Positions 2,625-64,000 of a stretch of DNA of 64,000 nt are shown piece after piece. A program made the translations under genes and the position numbers. Source of the DNA: Escherichia phage ukendt; sequence record NC_052661.1; one strand, 5' to 3'. Positions within the stretch are counted from its first letter, which is position 1. Each line of letters begins with the position of its first letter. The notes beneath the pieces were generated by a model, which had not been told where the DNA came from, did not search any database, and worked only from the letters and a program-made list of their open reading frames with translations.

Positions 2625-2680
2625 TTGACAAGTCCGCTTAATCTGATAATATGTATCTTGTAGGGCGGCAATGGTGCCGC
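2625..2680 (+). promoter_or_regulatory. promoter TTGACA-N16-TAATAT plus hairpin GCGGC-AATGGT-GCCGC
   Basis: -35 2625-2630; hairpin 2665-2680. Confidence 0.6.
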
Positions 2681-2701
2681 TCACAAGAAGAGAGAAAAAT
2701 C

Positions 2702-2986
2702 ATGAAAATCACAAAAAGCCTAACTAATTATGCAGCACGTCGCGGATTATGTTTAACCGTTGAAAACTTAGGGAAAGAAGACTTTTTGTGTTTTTGGGAG
2801 CTTGAAAACGATTGCGAGTGGATGTTTTCCTATTCTATCTGCGAAGATCAAAACGGTTGTTTGTTAACCTGGCGCGGTAATATTTATTTACCGGAAGAAA
2901 TTAAAGAGGAATTACCAGGTACGATCATGACAGAGAGACAGCTTAAGGAAATGATTAATTTTGTAGGGCAAAACATTAAAAAATAA
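2702..2986 (+). CDS. hypothetical protein (94 aa)
   Basis: In-frame ATG after RBS agagagaaaaatc. Confidence 0.5.
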   Translation: MKITKSLTNYAARRGLCLTVENLGKEDFLCFWELENDCEWMFSYSICEDQNGCLLTWRGNIYLPEEIKEELPGTIMTERQLKEMINFVGQNIKK

Positions 2987-2987
2987 T

Positions 2988-3049
2988 TTGACAGCACGCA
3001 AACAACGTAGTAAAGTTTACCACATAGGGCGGCGGAATGGTCCACCGCT
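2988..3049 (+). promoter_or_regulatory. promoter TTGACA-N17-TAAAGT plus imperfect GGCGGCGG-AATGGT-CCACCGC hairpin
   Basis: -35 2988-2993; conserved CATAGGGCGG box. Confidence 0.55.
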
Positions 3050-13269: not shown

Positions 13270-13716
13270 ATGACTAAAATGAGACATTATGCTGTAAACT
13301 GTAACGATGTTTGGCGTTTGTGTCCTGATGATCCGACAGAAGGCACATTTGTAAGATATGAGGATTATAAAGAGTTATCAGATGCTGTGATCGCATTGTT
13401 AACTGATATCCGTTCACGTTATCCAGGACAAGATTTCACTTGCCCTCACATCAAACTTCTTGCTTGTCTGGTAGAAGGTGAGAAAGAAGTGGAAGATGGC
13501 TTCAAGCGTGTAGAGTATCAAGGTGAAACTTTAGAGGTTCCTGAATTTGTTAATTATATTGCAACAGATTCGAGTGGCGAGCGTTATGGCTACAGCCATA
13601 AGCCAGAGATTCCTGATTGGATTCCCGCTTGGAGATATTCCGTTAGTACCGGAGACTATATCTTCCTTGGTGTAGGTAGTAGTAAGGATTGGCGTTTCTC
13701 TTTGACAGAGGTTTAA
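13270..13716 (+). CDS. hypothetical protein (148 aa)
   Basis: ORF track. Confidence 0.55.
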   Translation: MTKMRHYAVNCNDVWRLCPDDPTEGTFVRYEDYKELSDAVIALLTDIRSRYPGQDFTCPHIKLLACLVEGEKEVEDGFKRVEYQGETLEVPEFVNYIATDSSGERYGYSHKPEIPDWIPAWRYSVSTGDYIFLGVGSSKDWRFSLTEV

Positions 13717-13720
13717 TAAT

Positions 13721-13984
13721 ATGAAAGAGACATTGCCAGCAGCATACCGTTTGAATGATGAACGTATTTGGGAGTGGACCGACGTTTCTTGTTTTTACCC
13801 TGAAATAGTTCAATATTGGCGAGCGAAAGGGTGTGTTGTAGTTATCAACCCTTGTGGACCAGTAGATGAAGATTGCTTGTATCTCGATGGAAAGTGGCAC
13901 AGTTATTGTCGCTGGCCTTTTGAGTGGATGTGTAAAGAAGATCTCCCAGAGGGTTGGGAGTATCCAAAAGCAAATAGGAGATAA
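13721..13984 (+). CDS. hypothetical protein (87 aa)
   Basis: ORF track. Confidence 0.5.
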   Translation: MKETLPAAYRLNDERIWEWTDVSCFYPEIVQYWRAKGCVVVINPCGPVDEDCLYLDGKWHSYCRWPFEWMCKEDLPEGWEYPKANRR

Positions 13985-61255: not shown

Positions 61256-61504
61256 ATGTCTCTATTAGAAAAACACGTGTTTGAAGATGGTAACGGCAAT
61301 GCAGTTTTTCTTTTCCATCCAGAAAAATACACATCTGAAAACAATGGTACAACTTCTATTGTAATCACTAAAGATGTTAAAGTTATTGATTTCTTGGCTC
61401 TGATGCGAGAGATGGATCTTGAAATTAATACTTTTAACGCAGAAGCTTTGGTTGTTGCTCTTCTGGAAAAGAAAGATAGTGAAGAAGTAGCAGAATATGC
61501 TTAA
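61256..61504 (+). CDS. hypothetical protein (82 aa)
   Basis: In-frame ATG after RBS attaggaggaaca. Confidence 0.5.
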   Translation: MSLLEKHVFEDGNGNAVFLFHPEKYTSENNGTTSIVITKDVKVIDFLALMREMDLEINTFNAEALVVALLEKKDSEEVAEYA

Positions 61505-61512
61505 ATAACTAT

Positions 61513-61542
61513 TGACAAACGTATCCTTCATATGTTAGGATA
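61513..61542 (+). promoter_or_regulatory. promoter TTGACA with TG-n-TAGGAT, upstream of tRNA cluster
   Basis: -35 61513-61518; same TATGTTA(R)GAT architecture as 62100 and 63828. Confidence 0.5.
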
Positions 61543-61751
61543 CGTTCATCAAGTGTGGTAACAGGGTCGTTGACTTTTGTTAAGAGAGGCTTGCACTGCG
61601 GATAGTGTTAGAGACTACTTCTTCAGAGGTTAGCTACCAAAGAGGAAAAGGAATAGTCTCGGCTCAAGAACTTTTACGCTGAAAGTTGGGCTTGGTCTTA
61701 GAGAATGTAGCGGTTCTCTACAATCGTCAGCGTCTCTGTTACCACATTTAT

Positions 61752-61823
61752 GGCCCTGTAGCTCAATGGGAGAGCTGTCGGCTCATAACCGATAGGTAGC
61801 TGGATCGAAACCAGCCAGGGCCA
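61752..61823 (+). tRNA. tRNA, anticodon CAT (elongator Met or lysidine-modified Ile2)
   Basis: cloverleaf folded by eye; anticodon loop CUCAUAA; T-arm GCTGG-ATCGAAA-CCAGC; CCA encoded. Confidence 0.75.
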
Positions 61824-61828
61824 CCAAC

Positions 61829-61900
61829 GTCTTTATGGTGTAATGGATAGCACAGGAGTCTTCTAAACTCTTAGTCAAGGTTCGATTCCTTGTAAAGACA
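61829..61900 (+). tRNA. tRNA-Arg (anticodon TCT)
   Basis: acceptor GTCTTTA/TAAAGAC; loop CTTCTAA; T-loop TTCGATT. Confidence 0.75.
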
Positions 61901-62099
61901 CCAGAACATTTTAACATGAATTAGCTCAAGTGATTTGAACCCACTACTGATCATGGTGGCAGAGAATGAGGTAAGTATGTCAGACATTATAAACAAAGGC
62001 CACGGTTATATTAGAAGACATAAATGCTCGAAGAGCACCGTTCGCTGAGAACGGGGGTTGGTGGAGTCACCATTCATGGTAAAATGTTTTAAAAAACTA

Positions 62100-62128
62100 T
62101 TGACAACTAACACTATTTTATGTTAGAT
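62100..62128 (+). promoter_or_regulatory. promoter TTGACA-N17-TTAGAT inside tRNA cluster
   Basis: hexamers 62100-62105 and 62123-62128, immediately before tRNA-Ser. Confidence 0.5.
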
Positions 62129-62137
62129 TATAAGCAT

Positions 62138-62225
62138 GGAAGGGCAAATCGACGTGGCGACGAAAACGGTCTTGAAAACCGCCGAGCTTGAAAGAGCCTT
62201 GGGAGTTCGACTCTCCCTCCTTCCG
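62138..62225 (+). tRNA. tRNA-Ser (anticodon TGA), class II
   Basis: acceptor GGAAGGG, loop CUUGAAA, long variable arm, discriminator G, CCA encoded; D-arm irregular. Confidence 0.7.
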
Positions 62226-62232
62226 CCAGATT

Positions 62233-62315
62233 GGTAGATTGGTGAAATGGTAGCCACGACAGTTTGCTAAACTGTAGTCGGAAACGGCGTGTAGGTTCGA
62301 GTCCTACATCTACCG
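62233..62315 (+). tRNA. tRNA-Ser (anticodon GCT), class II
   Basis: stem ACAGT/ACTGT, loop TTGCTAA, long variable arm, discriminator G. Confidence 0.75.
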
Positions 62316-62448
62316 CCAAGTTCTTTTTAATGTAGCTTACTTTAGCAGAGTAAATCTTCGGCAAGTGGCGGTAACCACTTTACCGATACCTCATAGTTAG
62401 TGGTGTGAACACTGGCTATTTTAAAAAGAATTTAAATATTAGTATTTA

Positions 62449-62533
62449 GGTGAGTTAATTCCGTAGGGGTAGCGGGGCAGACTGTAAATCTGTTATCATT
62501 GCGATTCGGGTGGTTCGACTCCATCACTCACCA
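62449..62533 (+). tRNA. tRNA-Tyr (anticodon GTA), class II
   Basis: loop CTGTAAA, long variable arm, discriminator A; 5-nt spacer between acceptor and D-stem is atypical. Confidence 0.65.
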
Positions 62534-62542
62534 CCAAATTAA

Positions 62543-62625
62543 GATGAGTTGGCTGAATGGTTTAAGCGGCGGACTGTTAATCCGTGTTCGAAAGAACAAT
62601 ATAGGTTCGAATCCTATACTCATCG
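62543..62625 (+). tRNA. atypical tRNA: Ser-type class II body with anticodon GTT (Asn codons)
   Basis: acceptor GATGAGT/ACTCATC, 3-bp D-stem, stem GCGGA/TCCGT, loop CTGTTAA, 15-nt variable arm, discriminator G. Confidence 0.6.
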
Positions 62626-62635
62626 CCAGAATTAT

Positions 62636-62711
62636 GGACTTGTAGAGTTAAGGTAAACCCCCAGTCGCCAATAGGCTTCTGGAATTGCAGGTATCGAATC
62701 CTGCCGAGTCC
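62636..62711 (+). tRNA. tRNA-like element (acceptor and T-arm pair, anticodon arm not foldable); possible pseudo-tRNA
   Basis: GGACTTG/CGAGTCC acceptor pairing and GCAGG..CCTGC T-stem with 8-nt loop; no canonical anticodon stem found. Confidence 0.25.
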
Positions 62712-62718
62712 CAGCATT

Positions 62719-62790
62719 GCTCCTATAGTATAATGGCTATTACAACGGTTTTGTAATCCGTGGATCTCTGTTCGATTCAGTGTGGGAGCA
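62719..62790 (+). tRNA. tRNA-Thr (anticodon TGT)
   Basis: acceptor GCTCCTA/TGGGAGC, loop TTTGTAA, T-loop TTCGATT; a few stem mismatches. Confidence 0.65.
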
Positions 62791-63065
62791 CCAACACAAC
62801 ATTAAGAGCACTGTGATTGATCGTCGTATCCTGTGCACAAGGTCTGCTCGAAAGACAGTGTTCTTAGTATTGTGTTGATCACAAAAAGAGTCACCCGAAA
62901 CTTGACCGGAGTAGGGTTGGATGGGGCAAAATGAGAAGCGGCTCTCCCATCGACAGCAACGAAGAATAATATTTGACTTTGGTTTTGTATTATTTAAGTT
63001 AGCTTACCGAACGTAGGGCTAGTCACCCAACGGGATACTCGTCACTGTCCCAATCAATAAAAGTC

Positions 63066-63095
63066 TTGACAACAAATAGTAAAATGTAGTATAGT
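63066..63095 (+). promoter_or_regulatory. promoter TTGACA-N18-TATAGT before tRNA-Gly
   Basis: hexamers 63066-63071 and 63090-63095. Confidence 0.5.
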
Positions 63096-63106
63096 AAAGA
63101 TATAGG

Positions 63107-63177
63107 GCGTTCTTGGTGTAGCGGTAGCATTCCGTCCTTCCAAGTCGGCGGCACGAGTTCGATCCTCGTAGAACGCT
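63107..63177 (+). tRNA. tRNA-Gly (anticodon TCC)
   Basis: acceptor GCGTTCT/AGAACGC, loop CTTCCAA, T-arm ACGAG-TTCGATC-CTCGT, discriminator T; D-arm weak. Confidence 0.6.
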
Positions 63178-63277
63178 CCAAATTATTTAATAAAGGGTTG
63201 CCAGAAAACTTTCTCTTTTACTCATGGTTTTCTCCTTCTCTCACACTTCTTCTGGTTGCCCTTCATTAAATGATTTT

Positions 63278-63350
63278 TGGTTTGTAGTGTAGTCCGGTAG
63301 CACACGACACTTTGACTGTCGTAGGTTTGGTTCAAATCCAGACAGACCAG
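63278..63350 (+). tRNA. tRNA-Gln (anticodon TTG)
   Basis: U1-A72 start, stem CGACA/TGTCG, loop CTTTGAC, discriminator G, CCA encoded. Confidence 0.75.
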
Positions 63351-63358
63351 CCATATAA

Positions 63359-63432
63359 CGGAATTTAGCTCAGTTTGGTAGAGTGTACGCTTTGGGAGCG
63401 TATTGTCGCAGGTTCGAATCCTGCAATTCCGA
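63359..63432 (+). tRNA. tRNA-Pro (anticodon TGG)
   Basis: acceptor CGGAATT/AATTCCG, stem TACGC/GCGTA, loop TTTGGGA, T-arm GCAGG-TTCGAAT-CCTGC. Confidence 0.8.
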
Positions 63433-63441
63433 CCAATTAAA

Positions 63442-63512
63442 TGTTTCGTAGTTCAATGGTAGAACCCACGACTGATAATCGTGAGACACAAGTTCGATTC
63501 TTGTCGAAACAA
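63442..63512 (+). tRNA. tRNA-Ile (anticodon GAT)
   Basis: acceptor TGTTTCG/CGAAACA, D-stem GTTC/GAAC, stem CACGA/TCGTG, loop CTGATAA. Confidence 0.75.
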
Positions 63513-63517
63513 CCAGT

Positions 63518-63587
63518 TTCCCGTTAGACTTACAGGATAAGAGTTCCACAGCTTATTGTGATGCTGGTTCGAATCCAGCACGGGATA
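63518..63587 (+). tRNA. tRNA-like element with canonical T-arm but non-canonical anticodon arm; possible pseudo-tRNA
   Basis: T-arm GCTGG-TTCGAAT-CCAGC and acceptor pairing present; only a 5-bp stem with 4-nt loop (CACAG-CTTA-TTGTG) found. Confidence 0.3.
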
Positions 63588-63593
63588 CATAAT

Positions 63594-63669
63594 AGCGGGA
63601 TAGAGGAGTCTGGTCGTCCTCGCCAGTTTCATATGCTGGAGATCATTGGTTCAAATCCGATTCCCGCCT
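63594..63669 (+). tRNA. tRNA, anticodon CAT, initiator-like (1:72 mismatch, T-loop TTCAAAT)
   Basis: acceptor AGCGGGA/TCCCGCC with A1-C72 mismatch, D-stem GAGG/CCTC, stem CCAGT/GCTGG, loop TTCATAT. Confidence 0.6.
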
Positions 63670-63787
63670 CCAAATATCGCTTGCCAGCGGTATCTTTGAA
63701 GACCTTGCCTGGTTCCTTCTAAGATGGAGGGGTGCGACTCCTTAACGCACAATTATAATAAAGCATTTCAAATTAACAGTATTTATT

Positions 63788-63811
63788 AGCCTCCTTATTG
63801 GAGGCTTTTTG
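63788..63811 (+). terminator. rho-independent terminator AGCCTCC-TTATT-GGAGGCT-TTTT
   Basis: perfect 7-bp stem plus T-tract after tRNA cluster. Confidence 0.75.
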
Positions 63812-63827
63812 CTATCTATTGAATAAA

Positions 63828-63855
63828 ACTTGACTTATTATTTTTTATATGTTAA
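63828..63855 (+). promoter_or_regulatory. promoter TTGACT with TG-n-TAAGAT
   Basis: same architecture as 61513 and 62100; followed by RBS aggagg and ATG 63881. Confidence 0.5.
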
Positions 63856-63880
63856 GATAAAGTTTAGGAGGATTTTATTA

Positions 63881-64000
63881 TGCCTAAACTAAAACGTGGT
63901 CGTGGAAGACCAACAGCCGAAATGCAACAGATCTACGCAATGGATGCGGCGCAAGCAAGTGTAAAAGAATTATTTGCAGAGCATTATTTAGAAGCTATGC
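63881..64000 (+). CDS. hypothetical protein, 5' partial at window edge; N-terminal KRGRGRP AT-hook-like motif
   Basis: ATG after RBS aggaggatttt; ORF runs off the window. Confidence 0.5.

Follow-up and report, generated by a model that had tools for sequence, protein, structure and literature searches.

Positions 61512-63812 of the 64,000-nucleotide stretch of Escherichia phage ukendt analysed here (NC_052661.1; hereafter, the window) are almost certainly the transfer RNA (tRNA) cluster of a Phapecoctavirus, organized as an operon. An earlier note on this DNA, made from its letters alone, had proposed a tRNA cluster under phage promoters at this place, and all the parts were recovered: twelve tRNAs, three promoters and one terminator. 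The cluster itself is already known, and annotated in dozens of genomes; the spacers between its tRNA genes hold structured RNAs, one of which, element C, is complementary to the 3' end of the plasmid gene ibfA and may act against the product of that gene.

Organization of the locus

Over positions 61300-64000, identity of the window to Escherichia phage AV126 was 98.9%. At least 80% of this region was covered by 62 phage records, among them ESCO13, ASO2A and other Phapecoctavirus (Stephanstirmvirinae), and the closest records had 98-99% identity; by these matches the locus was recognized as belonging to a virulent coliphage like phAPEC8, with a genome of ~150 kb, and as its tRNA cluster. The clusters of phAPEC8, ESCO13, ASO2A and phi92 (Phapecoctavirus and Justusliebigvirus) occupy the same locus, and ASO2A (MZ726793, annotated with tRNAscan-SE) has the same twelve anticodons and the same terminator. 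Public records of such clusters hold only tRNAs or spurious small open reading frames (ORFs) over the spacers, and the elements named A to G in this work are unannotated in them.

As for transcription, the following signals were located:

61512..61541, plus strand: promoter P1, TTGACA-N18-TAGGAT with a TG upstream of the -10, found by the scan and by the exact phage promoter pattern
62100..62129, plus strand: promoter P2, found by the scan and by the phage pattern, just upstream of tRNA-Ser (TGA)
63066..63095, plus strand: promoter P3, TTGACA-N18-TATAGT, 11 of 12 consensus positions in the scan
63788..63812, plus strand: intrinsic terminator, AGCCTCC-TTATT-GGAGGCT followed by TTTTTGC, found by the scan

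The promoters that the earlier note had placed at 61513, 62100 and 63066, and its terminator at 63788, were thus all found again by the scan, the first promoter at 61512, and the promoter positions are conserved across two genera; the terminator is annotated as rho-independent in MZ726793. In P1, phiWec179 and PsgM04F keep the -35 and the extended -10 but vary in the stretch between them; P2 keeps its position in Phapecoctavirus and Justusliebigvirus, as does P3, which stands before tRNA-Gly in both genera. The three promoters lie at equal places in phiWec179/PsgM04F, phi92, BME3, JohannJBalmer and inny: one precedes the first block of tRNAs, one Ser-TGA and one Gly. All three are predicted sigma-70 promoters, with -35 and -10 hexamers at a spacing of 16-18 bp and conserved positions, and the pattern TTGAC...TGnTAnnAT occurs 11 times in the window when 2.2 occurrences are expected, a five-fold over-representation.

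The cluster was compared with that of phiWec179, a Phapecoctavirus in which it has diverged to ~85%. Two identity classes of spacers emerged from this comparison: elements A, B, C and E2 at 74-79%, and elements D, E1, F and G at 95-100%, the latter being conserved to the same degree as the tRNAs.

Element C and its match to ibfA

62318..62433, plus strand: element C, a structured RNA of four helices between tRNA-Ser (GCT) and tRNA-Tyr

The earlier note had listed the spacers at 61900-62137, 62790-63106 and 63181-63277 as carrying long hairpins; all three hold structured elements, and the list left out 62319-62448, the spacer that holds element C. Fifteen distinct copies of C, from Phapecoctavirus, Justusliebigvirus, rV5-like Vequintavirus and T5-like phages, were aligned, and each of them lies within a tRNA cluster, on the tRNA strand. 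In the alignment, 99.7% of the pair cells were paired and seven pairs had double changes, versus 0-1 in slid controls.

When the masked spacers were searched against 5,426 complete E. coli genomes, the core of C was found in 188 plasmids, where it matched the 3' end of a 345-nucleotide (nt) gene on the opposite strand; the product, of 114 amino acids, goes in some records by the name "abortive infection protein". ColIb-P9 (NC_002122) encodes a protein identical to it at nt 13,401-13,745, an interval named as ibfA, the gene annotated as inhibiting T5 and BF23 (PMC8004404). Positions 62337-62391, the P2-P3 core of C, read in reverse complement exactly as the final 17 sense codons of ColIb-P9 ibfA and the stop codon after them; 55 of 55 nt were identical to plasmids of the ColIb-P9 type, and the strand is the one antisense to ibfA. 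Other phages carry longer matches: in the C variants of phi92 and of phiWec179/PsgM04F, the homology runs on into the 3' flank of the plasmid gene, and in phAPEC8 it covers 78 nt at 97.4% identity to the ibfA 3' region. In total, 133 phage records carry the match, and the features annotated over it are invariably "none" or "hypothetical protein".

On the plasmid side, the ibfA region is present in ~400 PLSDB plasmids; those examined are IncI1, IncI-gamma/K and IncF, from Escherichia, Salmonella, Klebsiella and Shigella. A covariance model of element C matched the plasmid regions on the antisense strand with 55-59 bits, with P2 and P3 intact and without P1 and P4, which are phage specific. The same model had no match in the T5 tRNA region, and the core motif was absent from the T5 genome contig in IMG/VR; a scan of IMG/VR for this core returned only four contigs, one of which was a chance coding match. 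T5 lacks C, whereas the T5-like phages HildyBeyeler, Spc35 and phiLLS have it.

The complementarity goes far beyond chance (55-78 nt at 97-100% to ibfA, for four alleles), and the complementary strand is the one that would be transcribed, C being on the tRNA strand in four phage lineages and lying downstream of P2 with no predicted terminator between them. Compared with C and the ibfA mRNA folded each on its own, their predicted heteroduplex gains 68 kcal/mol in stability. A literature search for a link between ColIb ibfA and phage sequences found nothing.

Regarding the protein, IbfA has a strongly hydrophobic core by its sequence, and it matched no PADLOC or NCBIfam family. Cells with ColIb abort the infection by T5 and BF23; the trigger is the T5 pre-early protein A2, and the response involves loss of the membrane potential (PMC10644984). 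According to the same 2023 source, the gene products behind this abortive infection were not yet identified and its mechanism was not settled (PMC10644984). The predicted hydrophobic core of IbfA fits a membrane effector and the reported loss of membrane potential, and the fact that T5, which is aborted by ColIb, lacks element C counts for an action of C against IbfA.

A side observation regards O157 typing phage 4 (rV5-like; locus L006, 3000-3222), whose block of C and tRNA-Tyr is ~98% identical to the window; its tRNA-Tyr has the 3' acceptor strand replaced and is not called by ARAGORN, so that the block has the appearance of a module acquired not long ago, in which the tRNA has decayed.

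Allele matching between phages and plasmids

Four IbfA alleles were distinguished, with 61-84% protein identity, and each has phage C units at 90-100% nucleotide identity, spread over Phapecoctavirus, Justusliebigvirus, Vequintavirus and T5-like phages:

ibfA allele ColIb-P9: C of the window, AV126 and ASO2A, 100% over 53-55 nt; O157 typing phage 4, 100% over 55 nt; further partners JohannJBalmer and Nernie, 96.6% over 58 nt
ibfA allele pE1: phi92, 96.6% over 58 nt; T5-like HildyBeyeler, 94% over 54 nt
ibfA allele pKMi012: pEC-M2929, 98% over 57 nt; BME3, 96% over 54 nt; phiLLS, 92%; Spc35, 90%
ibfA allele pRHB41-C22_2: first C unit of inny, 92% over 51 nt, and of IMG/VR contig L011, 90% over 51 nt

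Two elements, those of inny (locus L016, 2423-2603) and of contig L011 (7206-7391), consist of two units with P2-P3 in tandem, and in both the units match different ibfA alleles: the second unit of inny is 100% identical to the pKMi012 allele (56 nt), and the second unit of L011 is 100% identical to the ColIb-P9 allele (58 nt). In the P3 hairpin, the ibfA alleles differ by compensatory changes that alter the protein (VVTAT, MAATI, MVGAI).

Matching of this kind is equally expected if the plasmid tracks the phage. C would then be a sensed RNA, with which the 3' end of the ibfA mRNA pairs so that ibfA is activated or stabilised, and the plasmids would follow the phage variants. Abortive infection systems do need a phage-specific trigger; the classical one for T5, which lacks C, is the A2 protein (PMC10644984). 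Moreover, a purely harmful element would be lost, and not be conserved in structure in four lineages and tandemly duplicated, and a sensed C is considered very improbable.

The identity of C with ibfA might also be due to passive recombination between plasmids and phage tRNA islands, for instance through homing endonucleases, with no antisense function in either direction. The cluster is a mosaic in which tRNA-Tyr, tRNA-Asn and tRNA-Pro are strongly different between close relatives, HNH/homing endonuclease genes interrupt related clusters, the block of C and tRNA-Tyr is shared at 98% by the window phage and an rV5-like phage, and endonucleases of the SegB type promote the transfer of tRNA-region DNA (PMC2330249); against a passive origin stands the finding that only the 3'-terminal ~60-115 nt of ibfA are ever present, always in one orientation and inside a phage-specific closing helix. 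Pairing is kept by compensatory changes in the phages and, even at the cost of amino acid changes, in the plasmid gene; the four alleles are matched independently, and two-unit versions exist. With these observations, passive exchange seems improbable, and it was ranked, like the sensed C and like the view of the spacers as mere processing sequences (discussed below), lower than an action of C against IbfA.

The other structured RNAs of the spacers

The remaining non-tRNA parts of the cluster are the following:

61543..61751, plus strand: element A, a structured leader of ~200 nt with a closing helix of ~22 bp, ending at the 5' end of the first tRNA
61904..62096, plus strand: element B, a structured RNA of ~190 nt, z = -3.9
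62635..62716, plus strand: element D, an anticodon-less tRNA-like RNA, homologue of T5 "RNA3"
62794..62880, plus strand: element E1, a long irregular hairpin with invariant internal loops, z = -3.9
62881..63065, plus strand: E2, a spacer with no detectable structure (z = -0.8) or coding signal, 74% identical in phiWec179
63181..63277, plus strand: element F, a hairpin of ~30 bp with a C/U-rich apical region, z = -5.2
63517..63590, plus strand: element G, a second anticodon-less tRNA-like RNA
63673..63760, plus strand: H, a conserved sequence 3' of the last tRNA, for which structure is not supported

By the z-scores of their folds against shuffled controls, every spacer folded better than the controls except E2 and H. 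The long imperfect hairpins proposed in the spacers are therefore real, with z = -3.9 at 62794-62880, z = -5.2 at 63181-63277 and z = -6.4 at 61543-61751. The last of these is element A, which has a minimum free energy of -78 kcal/mol and was found only in Phapecoctavirus; eight of its 66 consensus pairs have double compensatory changes with respect to phiWec179/PsgM04F, its closing helix is invariant, and its interior has 79% identity. Element B has homologues (~71% identity) inside the tRNA clusters of the Seunavirus PVP-SE1, GAP31, SSE121 and Csp-D17; in their alignment the single-stranded motifs are invariant, and at least three helices have compensatory changes.

Element E1 is 100% identical in phiWec179, whereas the adjoining E2 has 74% identity; the only ATG-started ORF of E2 (62921-63016) is not conserved. 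Around 30 homologues of E1 occur in 30-50 kb IMG/VR (pro)phage contigs, in a Klebsiella siphophage and in Sashavirus, often abutting the 5' end of tRNA-Arg-UCU, and seven of the 24 pairs covary. In the one locus followed in detail (L060, 8070-8228), the E1-like hairpin is located between divergent portal and terminase genes, with no spacer to the 5' end of tRNA-Arg-UCU; E1-like hairpins are also present at L028, L035, L057 and further IMG/VR loci and on E. coli chromosomes (H191 and H214), and outside L060 there are loci where a conserved GC hairpin follows in place of tRNA-Arg-UCU. A scan of genome contigs for the E1 core gave 83 matches in unrelated taxa, about the chance estimate for 17 specified bases, and was discarded as uninformative.

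Element F is 98% identical in phiWec179; its stem covaries with the Justusliebigvirus version, and its core CTCATGGTTTTCTCCTTC is invariant. Positions 63219-63238 are a 20-nt perfect complement of the Shine-Dalgarno sequence, the start codon and the next two codons of E. coli gapC (AGGAGAAAACCATGAGTAAA; locus L245, 301-320), and this match is present in 3,829 of the 5,426 complete E. coli genomes. The Justusliebigvirus element keeps a 16-nt core, which can pair, through one G.U among its base pairs, with the region around the start of phi92 gp110 as well. The RNAduplex energy of F with the gapC start region was no better than that of shuffled controls; F as a second antisense RNA is treated as a lead only, its support being the 20-nt exact match.

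As for H, it is ~90% identical to Justusliebigvirus (locus L008, 5177-5252), where it follows a different last tRNA (Ile versus Met). It holds a T-arm-like GGAG-GGGUGCGA-CUCC; no compensatory changes were found in it and no convincing tRNA-like fold was obtained.

The two tRNA-like elements proposed in the cluster proved real: D (62635-62716) and G (63517-63590) are conserved at 97.6% and 94.6% with phiWec179, versus 74-79% for the other spacers of that relative. D folds as a cloverleaf that lacks the anticodon loop and has a UAGA linker, a D stem of 3 bp and a T loop of 8 nt; its structure is 95% paired, and 10 of 21 pairs have double changes, versus 0-3 in slid controls. It shares motifs with T5 RNA3 and, like RNA3, is located directly 3' of tRNA-Asn; it keeps its 97.6% conservation in phiWec179 although the tRNA-Asn is replaced there. 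The covariance model of D scored 77-91 bits in T5-like phages and Stephanstirmvirinae, and 83 bits when membership of the RNA3 family was examined; by homology of sequence and structure and by position, D is a new member of that family. Most of the 104 IMG/VR matches to the D-arm motif did not belong to the D family and were set aside. Element G has a canonical T arm and an acceptor stem of 6-7 bp; where a tRNA has its anticodon arm, G has only a short stem, together with the UAGA linker and the 3-bp D stem of D, whose model scores it weakly (24.6 bits, E = 7e-7).

None of A, B, C, D, E1, F, G and H had an Rfam 15 match near the gathering score, with E up to 10, in the window and three related loci. 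Self-cleaving ribozymes (HDV-like, theta or other) were considered for the elements directly after tRNAs and dropped, having no Rfam support. No spacer holds a conserved ORF: the small ORFs tried as genes have no good ribosome-binding site, have stops or frameshifts in relatives, or have no homologue. A tiny minus-strand ORF with a strong ribosome-binding site in F was likewise judged not to be coding, because the nucleotides conserved in relatives carry a frameshift. In the 5,426 complete E. coli genomes, A, B, E2, D, G and H had no match.

Overall, A, B, C, E1 and F are, by comparison of their sequences, structured RNAs backed by compensatory changes; phage families unrelated to this one have B, C, D and E1 in their tRNA clusters too, and for B, C, E1 and F neither Rfam nor the literature searched contains a description. 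The suggestion that the spacers contain processing signals or small RNAs is thus supported, with five spacers having covariation-backed structures and four families recurring elsewhere. Whether processing alone would suffice was weighed: the helices could be sites for RNase III or RNase E, and the excised pieces could be degraded without any function of their own. A, E1 and F do contain helices that are nearly perfect over ~14-30 bp, in B and C a helix pairs the two ends, E2 and H lack a structural signal, and in the T4 cluster RNase III is reported to cut upstream of the first tRNA. A mere spacer, however, would have no reason to track four ibfA alleles, and the loops or internal loops of B, E1 and F are more conserved than their stems; D, E1, F and G are conserved at 95-100% next to spacers at 74-79%, the modules adjoin different tRNAs in unrelated phages, and their T5 homologues and analogues are annotated as stable RNAs. 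A role in processing and spacing only is considered unlikely, and it is rather probable that the modules accumulate as discrete functional RNAs.

tRNA genes

ARAGORN found ten tRNAs in the window, and eleven of the twelve genes scored above the gathering score (29 bits) of Rfam RF00005, with 39-72 bits; the tRNAscan-SE annotation of the near-identical ASO2A (MZ726793) contains all twelve anticodons that had been called by hand, namely CAT (as Ile2), Arg-TCT, Ser-TGA, Ser-GCT, Tyr-GTA, Asn-GTT, Thr-TGT, Gly-TCC, Gln-TTG, Pro-TGG, Ile-GAT and Met-CAT. The hand-made calls were borne out in this way, each predictor supporting the majority of them. CCA is encoded in all twelve genes.

61752..61826, plus strand: tRNA with anticodon CAT, first; ARAGORN; Rfam 64.5 bits; Ile-CAT by tRNAscan-SE in MZ726793
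61829..61903, plus strand: tRNA-Arg (TCT); ARAGORN, Rfam, tRNAscan-SE; 100% identity in phiWec179
62138..62228, plus strand: tRNA-Ser (TGA); tRNAscan-SE in MZ726793; non-canonical D arm
62233..62318, plus strand: tRNA-Ser (GCT); ARAGORN, Rfam, tRNAscan-SE
62449..62536, plus strand: tRNA-Tyr (GTA); Rfam 39 bits (62449-62533), threshold 29; tRNAscan-SE in MZ726793
62543..62628, plus strand: tRNA with anticodon GTT (Asn); ARAGORN, Rfam; G73; class II with a long variable arm
62719..62793, plus strand: tRNA-Thr (TGT); ARAGORN, Rfam, tRNAscan-SE
63107..63180, plus strand: tRNA-Gly (TCC); ARAGORN, Rfam, tRNAscan-SE
63278..63353, plus strand: tRNA-Gln (TTG); ARAGORN, Rfam, tRNAscan-SE
63359..63435, plus strand: tRNA-Pro (TGG); ARAGORN, Rfam, tRNAscan-SE
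63442..63515, plus strand: tRNA-Ile (GAT); ARAGORN, Rfam, tRNAscan-SE
63594..63672, plus strand: tRNA with anticodon CAT, second, initiator-like; ARAGORN, Rfam; A1.C72, U73, extended D stem

Among the T5 tRNAs with a CAT anticodon, the nearest to the first CAT tRNA was tRNA-Ile2 (identity 0.71), and from its sequence it is probably a tRNA-Ile2, which carries lysidine and reads AUA. Its T loop (61752-61826) is AUCGAAA and not UUCGAAU, with A at the usual T54 position, and of all the tRNAs it gets the highest score, 34 bits, from the covariance model built on element D. The second CAT tRNA was closest to the T5 tRNA annotated as fMet (identity 0.68) and further from T5 Met and Ile2, and its JohannJBalmer orthologue is annotated as tRNA-fMet; it has the unpaired 1:72 position of initiators (A1.C72), where the T5 tRNA annotated as fMet has U1.U72. 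Its anticodon stem (CCAGU/GCUGG) has no three consecutive G:C pairs, and because these are missing it is called initiator-like and not initiator.

The least secure call is tRNA-Ser (TGA), because of a sub-threshold match to a tRNA-Sec model, an odd D-arm allele and a phi92 copy flagged as a pseudogene. Only the tRNA-Sec model matches it, at 37.4 bits versus a gathering score of 47 bits, and ARAGORN makes no call in the window; it is 94.5% conserved in phiWec179. At the corresponding position ARAGORN calls a tRNA-Ser (TGA) in PsgM04F, BME3 and phi92; the window allele differs in sequence and is not of the T5/phi92 type. The flag on the phi92 copy comes from its own RefSeq record. tRNA-Tyr has 84% identity to T5 tRNA-Tyr over 81 nt.

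Regarding the GTT tRNA, its 86 nt include a variable arm of 15 nt, made of a 4-bp stem and a tetraloop, which places it in class II (paired arm longer than 10 nt), a class normally formed by Leu, Ser and Tyr tRNAs (PMC9976931). The stem of this arm covaries across the window, phi92, PVP-SE1 and HildyBeyeler, and the class II Asn copies outside the window, of 85-86 nt, are located at L008 3310-3394, L023 5607-5691 and L007 4042-4127. The tRNA also has the anticodon GUU and the discriminator G73, the identity elements of tRNA-Asn (PMC9976931). A class II body on a tRNA-Asn is unusual: the T5 tRNA-Asn is a normal class I molecule of 78 nt, and a literature search for class II tRNA-Asn in phages found nothing. 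In principle, this tRNA could also be a substrate of the seryl-tRNA synthetase SerRS; the choice of the earlier note to leave it without an amino acid was prudent, because of the class II body with its long variable arm.

Variation among related clusters

At the place of the Asn gene, phiWec179 (locus L003, 2545-2673) and PsgM04F have an ORF of 42 codons preceded by GGAGG, a strong ribosome-binding site; their tRNA-Tyr, with 56% identity, belongs to another allele. Many close relatives have an extra module of 88 nt between tRNA-Gln and tRNA-Pro (ASO2A, locus L001, 3563-3650), with its own closing helix AAAGGT...ACCTTT; it is absent from the window, where it would fall at 63354-63358, and the ASO2A copy had no match in the 5,426 E. 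coli genomes. HNH/homing endonuclease genes interrupt the same cluster in nepoznato and JohannJBalmer (2640-3020), and also in T5, while in ZCKP1 an insert of ~800 bp annotated as an XRE-family antidote protein is located inside the cluster. Such interruptions fit a shuffling of modules in the tRNA cluster.

Codon usage and the role of the tRNAs

The codon usage of the phage ORFs of the window, from a phage of 39% GC, was compared with a 49-kb sample of E. coli. The codons over-used by the phage were ACA (3.1x), GGA (2.8x), TAT (2.6x), ATA (2.4x), AGA (2.1x) and AAT (2.0x), followed by CCA and AGT (1.7x each); phage tRNAs read all eight, and they read six of the nine most enriched codons. The comparison of codon usage suggested by the earlier note therefore supports codon compensation in part: the A/U-ending codons read by phage tRNAs are enriched, but to an equal degree so are CTA, TGT and CCT, for which there is no dedicated phage tRNA, and no enrichment was seen for the C-ending codons cognate to the G34 tRNAs.

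The tRNAs would read mainly A/U-ending codons, used 1.4-3 times more by the phage than in the E. coli sample, and a further role may be to stand in for those tRNAs of the host that tRNA-targeting defences destroy. That they are kept mainly for such a replacement, of host tRNAs cleaved by defences or lost in host shut-off, and not for codon compensation, is possible though somewhat doubtful: several tRNAs have unusual bodies (the class II Asn, the first CAT with its odd T loop, the non-canonical Ser-TGA) and a candidate anti-defence RNA is present in the same island, while all the codons read by U34 tRNAs are enriched in the phage, as compensation would have it.

Proposed mechanism

Taken as a whole, the locus is best explained, with good probability, as a tRNA-plus-RNA island of early type in a phAPEC8-like myovirus. 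Going by the promoter and terminator sequences and their conservation, host sigma-70 RNA polymerase would start at 61512, 62100 and 63066 and stop at 63788. By analogy with T4 and T5, RNase P would cut the 5' ends of the tRNAs and 3' trimming would stop at the encoded CCA; RNase III, again by analogy, would probably cut the long closing helices of A, E1 and F. Each module would be excised by the tRNA-processing enzymes of the host because it has tRNAs on both sides, or a promoter on one and a tRNA on the other, and the cuts would release twelve tRNAs together with A, B, C, D, E1, F and G as discrete by-product RNAs. Given their recurrence across phage families, the non-tRNA modules may be viewed as cargo RNAs that move between phage tRNA clusters.

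As for element C, once made early from strong promoters it would pair with the 3' end of the ibfA mRNA and cover the stop codon; the duplex would be a substrate for RNase III, and its cutting would leave a non-stop mRNA. In a variant of this scheme, C would mimic an antisense antitoxin RNA of the plasmid itself. Either way, the membrane-toxic IbfA would not be made and the phage would escape abortive infection. In relation to the variant, a motif TTGACA-N17-TAGCGT/TAGCTT that points into ibfA is found 3' of the stop codon in all plasmid alleles examined (ColIb-P9, L248 960-1001; L246, L247 and L249); it is a possible antisense promoter, whose start would fall where the homology to phage C begins.

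That element C acts against IbfA, as an antisense or an antitoxin-mimic RNA, is given about an even chance on the sequence evidence, and several considerations weigh against it. An antisense RNA cannot neutralise the IbfA protein already made before infection; the 345-nt ORF is taken as the effective gene from the annotation of the plasmid (PMC8004404) and from its name in RefSeq, "abortive infection protein"; and the restriction by ColIb of phages like phAPEC8, rV5 or phi92 is an assumption, the phages cited being T5 and BF23. The candidate antisense promoter of the plasmids has a weak -10 (3/6) and failed the consensus scan. The expression of C and of all the spacer RNAs, and the effect of C on IbfA, are deduced from sequence, and shared segments can also arise passively, because tRNA clusters are recombination hot spots with homing endonucleases. 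The fuller proposal, to be regarded as tentative, is that C is excised from a tRNA precursor and silences ibfA, with variants that track at least four alleles in an RNA-level arms race of four lineages; tRNA islands would be launch pads for RNAs of this kind, and B, D, E1, F and G further candidates.

Relation to known systems

The tRNA region of T5 (AY543070) has eight annotated stable RNAs, RNAI, RNAIII, RNAIV, RNA2H and RNAX plus the tRNA-like RNA1, RNA2 and RNA3. As in the window, other RNAs, which pair their 5' end with their 3' end, alternate with the tRNAs of T5, and there are several internal sigma-70 promoters; HNH endonucleases are present in the T5 cluster. Element D is a true homologue of RNA3, both following tRNA-Asn. 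This was, apart from T-arm noise, the only match when the T5 stable RNAs were compared with the window by BLAST, which found no T5 homologue of A, B, C, E1 or F.

In T4, eight tRNAs and two stable RNAs (species I and II) are made from one primary transcript, and the homing endonuclease SegB mobilises the tRNA region (PMC2330249). By its description, the T4 cluster is a single transcription unit whereas the island of the window has three.

Regarding the logic of counter-defence, the closest parallels to C are the pseudo-ToxI antitoxin mimics, active against ToxIN, and the RNA anti-CRISPRs, in which a phage non-coding copy of part of a host defence locus neutralises that defence; copy expansion has been seen for pseudo-ToxI, and the two-unit C recalls it. 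C differs from both in being complementary to the coding 3' end of the gene of a protein effector and in being neither a repeat of a known RNA antitoxin nor a CRISPR repeat. A type III antitoxin mimic of the pseudo-ToxI type was rejected for C, which has one or two units and matches a protein-coding 3' end, while IbfA has no PADLOC model; no protein of the ToxN/AbiQ type is involved with C, and a toxin-binding role cannot be drawn from the comparison.

The type I toxin-antitoxin pairs txpA/RatA and bsrG/SR4 of Bacillus subtilis, whose antisense RNAs and toxin mRNAs overlap at the 3' end of the latter, resemble C and ibfA in having a hydrophobic membrane toxin, a 3'-end antisense RNA and, on both partners, hairpins suited to initiation by loop-loop contact; from this likeness, decay dependent on RNase III would be the expected outcome for C and ibfA. 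Unlike the type I antitoxins, C is encoded by the phage and not beside the toxin gene, the antisense RNA of the plasmid being a possibility only, and IbfA, with 114 amino acids, is larger than typical type I toxins.

Significance

In conclusion, an antisense RNA against the mRNA of a defence effector, carried in a tRNA operon and diversified by allele, as the sequences suggest for C, would be a new variant of RNA-based counter-defence. The abortive infection of T5 and BF23 by ColIb has been known since the 1960s-70s, and the allele-by-allele antisense match points to a membrane protein of 114 amino acids as its effector, besides offering a tool for probing the regulation of ibfA. If true, the proposal would amount to counter-defence by antisense silencing of the mRNA of a defence effector, and it would explain why some T5-like phages, and not T5, may ignore the common plasmids of the ColIb type. 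More generally, the unannotated third of such tRNA clusters consists of conserved, mobile, structured RNA families that are in no database, and the theme of the T4 and T5 "stable RNAs" extends to many modern phage genomes, including candidates for therapy.

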